This document shows positions 11,351-11,721 of a stretch of 64,000 bases of DNA, piece by piece. Positions within the stretch are counted from its first letter, which is position 1, and each line of letters begins with the position of its first letter. Under the pieces are notes generated by a model. It was not told the origin of the DNA. It was given only the letters and a program-made list of their open reading frames with translations, and made no database searches. Position numbers and translations under genes: made by a program. The DNA is from Escherichia coli (GTDB lineage Bacteria; Pseudomonadota; Gammaproteobacteria; Enterobacterales; Enterobacteriaceae). The stretch lies in the NCBI RefSeq assembly GCF_030013595.1, contig NZ_CP122768.1. One strand, written 5' to 3'.

Positions 11351-11567
11351 CAGCTTTTCCTTACAGAGTGTGAATAAAAAAGCCGGTACCCACAAAAGTG
11401 GATACCGGCAGGTACAAAACAGCATGGTCAGATAAAGTGGTTTTTCCCGGACATAAATGCTTCCCCTCTCTCATCCGCCAGAGAAGTATCAGTCCGTTGT
11501 GTGCAATTCCGTTATGCATGATGAAGAGATTCAGCTGCCTTTTCGCAGACCATTAACCACTATAAAC

Positions 11568-11603
11568 GATCGATGGAAACGATCGATACCTGTTTTATCG
11601 ATC
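11568..11603 (-). promoter_or_regulatory. Three clustered GATC sites (Dam/OxyR phase-variation switch) in the Ag43 leader
   Basis: GATC at 11568, 11581 and 11600 inside ACGATCGAT-type repeats, ~220-250 bp upstream of the flu start codon; matches the known agn43 regulatory architecture. Confidence 0.7.
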
Positions 11604-11721
11604 GTTTTATTCTATTAACAGCAAGGCAGTCACGCAAGAGAAAGAGGTGGATATGAGGGGGGTGTATCATGTTTTCAGTTGGTTAACGCAATGTAATCAG
11701 GCATTTCCCCTGGCAGACTGT

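Follow-up and report, generated by a model that had tools for sequence, protein, structure and literature searches.

The cluster of three GATC sites upstream of cah very likely forms a Dam/OxyR epigenetic phase-variation switch of an antigen-43 (Ag43) family gene, here the cah allele; we put the probability of this reading at roughly 0.88. The window, i.e., the whole stretch of Escherichia coli DNA that was analysed, is 64 kb long. The K-12 mechanism can be assigned to the cah locus because all its sequence elements are present and conserved there, with OxyR binding, differential methylation, and actual switching at cah being predicted from the sequence. The interpretation as an Ag43 Dam/OxyR switch, given in an earlier note on this DNA, is supported by the identity of the gene as Ag43/Cah, by the alignment to K-12, by the predicted OxyR half-sites, and by conservation.

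The feature is already known, being a textbook mechanism at a known allele, and adds no new biology; three similarly spaced GATC sites in both Ag43 allelic groups have been published before. A search of the accessible literature found no decisive experiment on cah- or CFT073-type regulatory regions. The practical consequence is that cah in this porcine-ETEC-like island is very probably phase-variable, which matters for reading aggregation, biofilm, and expression data obtained from single colonies. Further, almost all experiments have been done on the K-12 model sequence, from which the OxyR site in its commonest natural form is different; this might merit a short follow-up.

The GATC cluster, predicted OxyR half-sites, and probable promoter upstream of cah

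The gene strand is the minus strand, on which the earlier note was silent. The features of the region, in the order of transcription, are:

11722-12594, minus strand: gene of a YeeP-like GTPase family protein, 290 aa; its stop codon lies 119 bp before the start site
11632-11637, minus strand: probable -35 hexamer TTGCGT, 3/6 to consensus, with a 17-bp spacer to the -10 hexamer; K-12 has TTGTCC at the same distance
11601-11615, minus strand: predicted OxyR half-site a, ATAGAATAAAACGAT, 8/10 to consensus, positions -12 to +3, overlapping the -10 box; identical in K-12
11609-11614, minus strand: -10 hexamer TAGAAT, identical in K-12 and invariant across 80 distinct window-type sequences
11603, minus strand: probable transcription start, the G of the promoter-proximal GATC-I, by homology
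11600-11603: GATC-I, Dam target, overlapping the right arm of half-site a and the start site; intact in 122/126 loci
11581-11584: GATC-II, Dam target, 19 bp downstream of GATC-I, overlapping the left arm of half-site b; intact in 122/126 loci
11569-11583, minus strand: predicted OxyR half-site b, ATCGTTTCCATCGAT, 8/10 to consensus, positions +21 to +35
11568-11571: GATC-III, Dam target, 13 bp downstream of GATC-II, overlapping the right arm of half-site b; intact in 125/126 loci
11369-11605, minus strand: leader RNA homologous to IsrC (Rfam RF00124, IS102), cmscan score 64.3 bits (gathering threshold 46)
11376-11409, minus strand: intrinsic terminator in the leader, with a 12-bp stem GCCGGTATCCAC/GTGGGTACCGGC (11409-11382) and T6 (11381-11376)
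11358-11362, minus strand: ribosome-binding site (RBS) AAGGA, 7 nt before the ATG at 11350; the block TAAGGAAAAGCTGATGAAACGACATCTGAA is identical in K-12
8501-11350, minus strand: cah, an Ag43/Cah-family self-associating autotransporter adhesin, 949 codons plus stop, signal peptide MKRHLNTSYRLVWNH...

The GATC sites span 36 bp in total and lie 221, 234, and 253 bp upstream of the minus-strand ATG at 11350. Each is placed inside one copy of the 11-mer AAACGATCGAT, which occurs in the window only in these three copies, two of them direct (11564-11574 and 11577-11587) and one inverted (11597-11607). The earlier note had described GATC sites at 11568, 11581, and 11600, within about 35 bp of each other, some 220-250 bp before the start codon, and embedded in ACGATCGAT repeats; all of this is borne out, the repeats being covered by the three 11-mers. 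Between 8067 and 12862 (4.8 kb) these are the sole GATC sites, the zone from 8071 to 12861 being otherwise GATC-free.

Elsewhere in the window, 24962-25014 holds another GATC triple, in which GATCATTATAGAATAATGATC, a palindrome, occupies 24962-24982 and ATCGATCGAT approximately 25008-25017. At 51359-51448, a unit of about 23 bp, with a consensus of roughly (A/T)(A/T)(T/C)CGATCAnnGTTTGGCATC, is repeated four times in tandem and contains GATC in three of the four copies; the repeats are located directly upstream of an IS66-family tnpA-like ORF (51539-51868), adjoining IS66 transposase fragments, and may be subterminal transposase- or regulator-binding repeats.

Alignment to the K-12 agn43 regulatory region, the check proposed in the earlier note, gives a clear result if it is ungapped and anchored at the GATC sites: the block from the -10 box to the start (AATAGAATAAAAC followed directly by GATC) and the 19- and 13-bp GATC spacing are identical, and ATCGATCGTTT..ATCGATCG is also common to both sequences. 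As the ungapped anchoring yielded identical spacing, we discarded the default MAFFT alignment, which introduced a 13-bp gap and mis-paired the GATC sites.

Half-sites were scored against the 10-position OxyR consensus ATAGnTnnnAnCTAT, on which the gtr and opvAB analyses are based; in those systems, half-sites at 7-10 matches out of 10 were treated as OxyR sites. Half-sites a and b are separated by a 17-bp spacer, corresponding to 32 bp from centre to centre, and together overlap all three GATC sites, whereas a lack of such overlapping half-sites had been named beforehand as an observation that would speak against the switch. No other pair of half-sites, each at least 8/10 and with a 17-bp spacer, occurs in the 64-kb window; in Markov simulations, 0.01 such pairs are expected per window, and 0.5% of the simulations have one. 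The half-site centres of opvAB are likewise 32 bp apart, a distance termed canonical (PMC4856963).

In K-12, the contiguous half-site ACGATCAATATCTAT ends in CTAT, scores 6/10, and is separated from half-site b by a 7-bp spacer. This contiguous arrangement with a central CTAT is absent from the window, where ACGATCGATAAAACA scores 2/10; hence, OxyR affinity and switching rates may differ from those in K-12. The missing contiguous half-site weakens the statement that the site is identical to that of K-12, not the statement that it works like agn43, since it is a feature of the K-12 type and not of the majority type. Reduced OxyR reportedly contacts two major-groove pairs, one helical turn apart (Toledano et al., 1994); given these contacts and the absence of the central CTAT, the window-type site would seem to be built for the extended mode of binding.

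A strict consensus promoter scan of the region called no promoter, and the promoter was therefore placed through homology and conservation. In the 80 distinct window-type sequences, the -35 and extended -10 elements are near-invariant, and nowhere is the region more variable than in the 17-bp spacer between them. The 13 nt preceding the start G are identical in the window and K-12, and the annotation of the sRNA isrC in MG1655 begins (5' end, 2071317) at the G of the first agn43 GATC. Transcription of agn43 reportedly starts at this very G, a result ascribed to Wallecha et al. in 2002. The 3' end of isrC in MG1655 is the T-tract of the hairpin just before the flu RBS.

By homology, the 5' UTR would extend from 11603 to 11351 (253 nt). 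The IS102/IsrC match covers model positions 1-206 of 206 (cmscan, E = 3.6e-10). The terminator in the leader was found by a terminator scan, folds as a 12-bp hairpin, and is nearly identical in K-12; expression of flu has been described as controlled through antitermination of IsrC (PMC5389530). At 11369, after the T-tract of the terminator and ahead of the RBS, the window has A on the minus strand instead of the C of UMNK88, ETEC4090, and K-12, and at 11545 it has C against A in ETEC4090; neither of these single-base differences touches the switch. An upstream in-frame ATG at 11425, 25 codons earlier and yielding an ORF of 974 aa, was rejected as the start of cah, as it is placed ahead of the terminator, within the leader, and the conserved start is a different one.

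The protein matches NCBIfam NF033177, "Ag43/Cah family autotransporter adhesin", over its full length (1983.9 bits against a cutoff of 1200, profile positions 1-948 of 948), and its best PDB match is 7KOH, "Antigen 43". It shows 68% identity to K-12 Flu, lacking about 90 residues of the passenger domain, and is 100% identical to RefSeq WP_000820483.1, "calcium-binding autotransporter Cah", of O157:H7, porcine ETEC4090, and UMNK88. The description as a shorter Ag43 variant of 949 codons is thus confirmed by the ORF from 11350 to 8501; as to the name flu used in the earlier note, the assignment to the Ag43 family stands, but the usual name of this allele is cah. In a structural study, the EDL933 allele is assigned to Ag43 class C2 (PMC8993888).

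The GTPase that is encoded upstream is identical to WP_001069768.1 of ETEC4090, has GTPase matches in NCBIfam, and precedes agn43/cah in every E. coli locus compared. The 10 kb around cah are 100% identical to porcine ETEC chromosomes, in which an island by a tRNA-Ser gene carries iha, an ibrB-like gene, IS66 copies, the YeeP-like GTPase gene, cah, and a dynamin-family gene. A complete IS66-family element (12821-15409; tnpA, 216 aa, tnpB, 115 aa, and tnpC, 523 aa) is situated about 200 bp upstream of the GTPase gene, with an older IS66 remnant beyond it, as in ETEC4090 and UMNK88.

Conservation and distribution of the regulatory region

We compared 126 regulatory regions: the window, 10 loci from E. 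coli genomes, and 115 metagenome contigs, the latter found through the conserved terminator. All three GATC sites are kept in 118 of the 126 loci. The score of half-site a is 8/10 throughout, and that of half-site b is at least 8/10 in 119 loci and 7/10 in 7. In the 80 distinct window-type sequences, the minor-allele frequency averages 0.005 over the 12 GATC positions, while the promoter spacer and positions +25 to +29, mostly the unconstrained "n" positions of half-site b, vary freely. This pattern is the one that a promoter plus a two-half-site operator would be predicted to leave.

The loci fall into a window type and a K-12 type that, at the megablast level, have nothing in common beyond the switch core and the terminator-RBS block. 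All three GATC sites are present in 101 of the 107 window-type loci, with both outer half-sites at 8/10. The contiguous half-site scores only 1-3/10 in 107/107 window-type loci, as compared to 6/10 in 17 of the 19 K-12-type loci. Short alleles (948-950 aa) follow the window-type region in 61 loci and long alleles (1039-1040 aa) in 22; the K-12-type region is seen with long alleles only. Among 5426 complete E. coli genomes, at least 80% of the query is covered in 3444 for the window-type upstream region, with up to six copies per genome, and in 1781 for the K-12 type, which makes the K-12 model sequence the minority regulatory type in E. coli.

Eight of the 126 regulatory regions have lost exactly one GATC site by point mutation: GATC-I is changed to GATT, GATG, or AATC; GATC-II to AATC or TATC; and GATC-III to TATC. 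These are L006 (3500-3870), L136, L145, L149, L161, L203, L249, and one further metagenome locus; one of the cases is the CFT073-like strain "clone D i14". The eight loci are candidates for naturally occurring variants whose switching is altered or locked.

Avoidance of GATC extends over the coding sequences of this family. The cah coding sequence contains no GATC site, as against 6.4 +/- 2.0 expected, and zero was reached in 0 of 2000 synonymous-codon shuffles; the K-12 flu coding sequence also contains none, with 8.6 expected from such shuffles. Besides the window, L001, L003, L004, and L006, the sample included 91 distinct Ag43/Cah coding sequences from L131-L250, of which 85 have no GATC and the other 6 have one. 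The first GATC after the stop codon is located at a distance of 61 bp in K-12, 27 bp in Nissle, and 434 bp in the window, the GATC density in K-12 and Nissle being back to normal 27-61 bp past the stop codon. No earlier mention of GATC depletion in agn43 was found in the literature searched, which is not evidence of novelty. It is tempting, though rather doubtful, to suggest that the GATC-free zone insulates the switch and, separately, that the majority (window-type) site binds OxyR only in the extended, reduced-form mode. If true, selection would keep other targets of Dam, SeqA, or MutH out of the transcription unit, leaving the race between Dam and OxyR unbiased. The strong, allele-wide avoidance of GATC in Ag43 genes is a by-product of this analysis that is possibly worth a short follow-up.

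A contig scan with CGATCGTTNNNATCGATCG, whose 16 specified bases were searched against 298 Gb, proved too unspecific: nearly all matches were chance ones in unrelated phyla, and only two Citrobacter loci were informative. In Citrobacter werkmanii NBRC 105721 (BBMW01000009.1, L015, 7150-7250, minus strand), an agn43-like element is found outside any Ag43 gene, with three GATC sites at 19- and 13-bp spacing inside ATAGTTTTTATCGAT-N17-ATCGTTTTTATCGAT, whose halves score 9/10 and 8/10 to the OxyR consensus. The genes downstream (4705-7130) are two small unknown ORFs, followed by a 2TM/SLATT effector (PADLOC PDLC00712, 6e-72) and a CBASS oligonucleotide cyclase (PDLC00769, 1e-115). Judging by its sequence, this locus may be a Dam/OxyR phase-variable anti-phage operon.

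Proposed mechanism and alternative explanations

In K-12 agn43, transcription is repressed and Dam is kept out when OxyR occupies the unmethylated site, GATC methylation prevents OxyR binding, and the resulting heritable states are re-contested after replication (PMC3764049, PMC4872104, PMC2909390, PMC13337833). At cah, a sigma-70 promoter (-35 at 11637-11632, -10 at 11614-11609) would start transcription at the G of GATC-I (11603, by homology), and an OxyR tetramer is predicted to sit on the half-sites at 11615-11601 and 11583-11569, straddling the start and overlapping all GATC sites. OxyR would bind here in the extended mode known from its reduced form, with two contact pairs one helical turn apart. 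By extension from K-12, in the OFF state bound OxyR would block RNA polymerase and shield the GATC sites from Dam, keeping them unmethylated; in the ON state, Dam would methylate the sites first in the window of time after replication, so that OxyR could not bind and transcription would proceed. Each state is inherited and rarely switches in K-12, and the same is expected at cah. A second, known layer would be the 253-nt leader (the IsrC/IS102 homologue) with its terminator at 11409-11376 just before the RBS; from this position of the terminator it follows that Cah would be expressed from read-through transcripts only.

An alternative is that the switch was inherited but altered: with the central CTAT gone, OxyR would bind weakly or in the extended mode only, and the locus would be ON-biased or switch at markedly different rates. 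The low scores of the contiguous half-site in the window-type loci, and the 15 bp between GATC-I and GATC-II, unrelated to those in K-12, agree with this, and the opvAB switch is locked once half-site quality is altered by a single base (PMC4856963). The altered type, however, would be the E. coli majority, its loci mostly keep three GATC sites along with good outer half-sites, which is hard to explain if competition with OxyR were lost, and the distance between half-site centres is the canonical one of opvAB. Taken together, this makes a strongly altered switch improbable. Even less probable is that the CGATCG palindromes act mainly in RNA, as hairpins of the 5' leader that stabilise or process the transcript, with GATC conserved for pairing and not for methylation. 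In the Rfam IS102 model, the segments of GATC-II and GATC-III do form a 5' stem, folding of the window leader gives an 8-bp hairpin at the 5' end in which the GATC-I segment is paired to the GATC-II segment, and the variable positions +25 to +29 form the loop of the Rfam stem, so that conservation around GATC-II and GATC-III fits a hairpin as well. Covariation tests of these two candidate hairpins yielded nothing usable, since the pairs hardly vary, with one double change each. In most sequences, moreover, the Rfam stem has two positions that do not pair; conservation is just as high in the -10 box and half-site a, which are not part of the transcript; and experiments in K-12 have established a mechanism at the DNA level. 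The palindromes could also have a role in RNA alongside the DNA-level switch.

That the three GATC sites are a chance cluster or a simple repeat with no regulatory role hardly deserves any weight. The cluster is the tightest triple among the 152 GATC sites of the window, but with uniform placement so tight a triple would arise somewhere in 64 kb with P ~0.31, hence density taken alone is weak evidence; within the 370-bp intergenic region, the corresponding probability is ~0.002. Against chance, the position, spacing, and flanks of the sites are homologous to those of the characterised K-12 switch, the sites are conserved while neighbouring positions vary, and the cluster coincides with the window's only paired OxyR half-sites. 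The real support for the predicted Dam/OxyR switch is thus homology and conservation, not GATC density.

Comparison with known systems

Similar to K-12 agn43 (flu), the region has a yeeP-like GTPase gene on one side and an Ag43-family gene on the other, predicted outer OxyR half-sites at 8/10 each, an IsrC/IS102 leader with a terminator, and an identical RBS. It differs from K-12 in the 15 bp from GATC-I to GATC-II (GATAAAACAGGTATC against AATATCTATTTTATC) and in the absence of the central CTAT; in the leader, which is 253 nt long as against 222 nt in K-12 and only ~50% identical in its middle part; in the -35 hexamer (TTGCGT against TTGTCC); and in the protein, 949 aa of the Cah class compared with 1039 aa.

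The cah gene of E. coli O157:H7, reportedly described by Torres et al. in 2002, encodes a 100% identical protein, has IS66 remnants, the GTPase gene, and the dynamin-family gene as neighbours, and shares the regulatory type and the spacing of the three GATC sites. The 370-bp upstream region is, however, only 89.5% identical, and the segment between GATC-II and GATC-III contains TTTAT in the O157 copy and TTTCC in the window.

In Salmonella gtr and opvAB, as here, OxyR half-sites contain or abut GATC sites; the GATC pairs of gtr are 13 bp apart, and the half-site centres of opvAB 32 bp apart. These systems differ in having four GATC sites and three or four half-sites upstream of the promoter. 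Alternative OxyR positions activate or repress in gtr and opvAB, whereas here, with one site over the start, OxyR would act only as a repressor. The pap-type Dam/Lrp switches likewise rely on heritable methylation patterns that result from competition between Dam and a DNA-binding regulator, but pap employs Lrp, with PapI, as the regulator, has two GATC boxes 102 bp apart, and lacks an OxyR site (PMC2909390).
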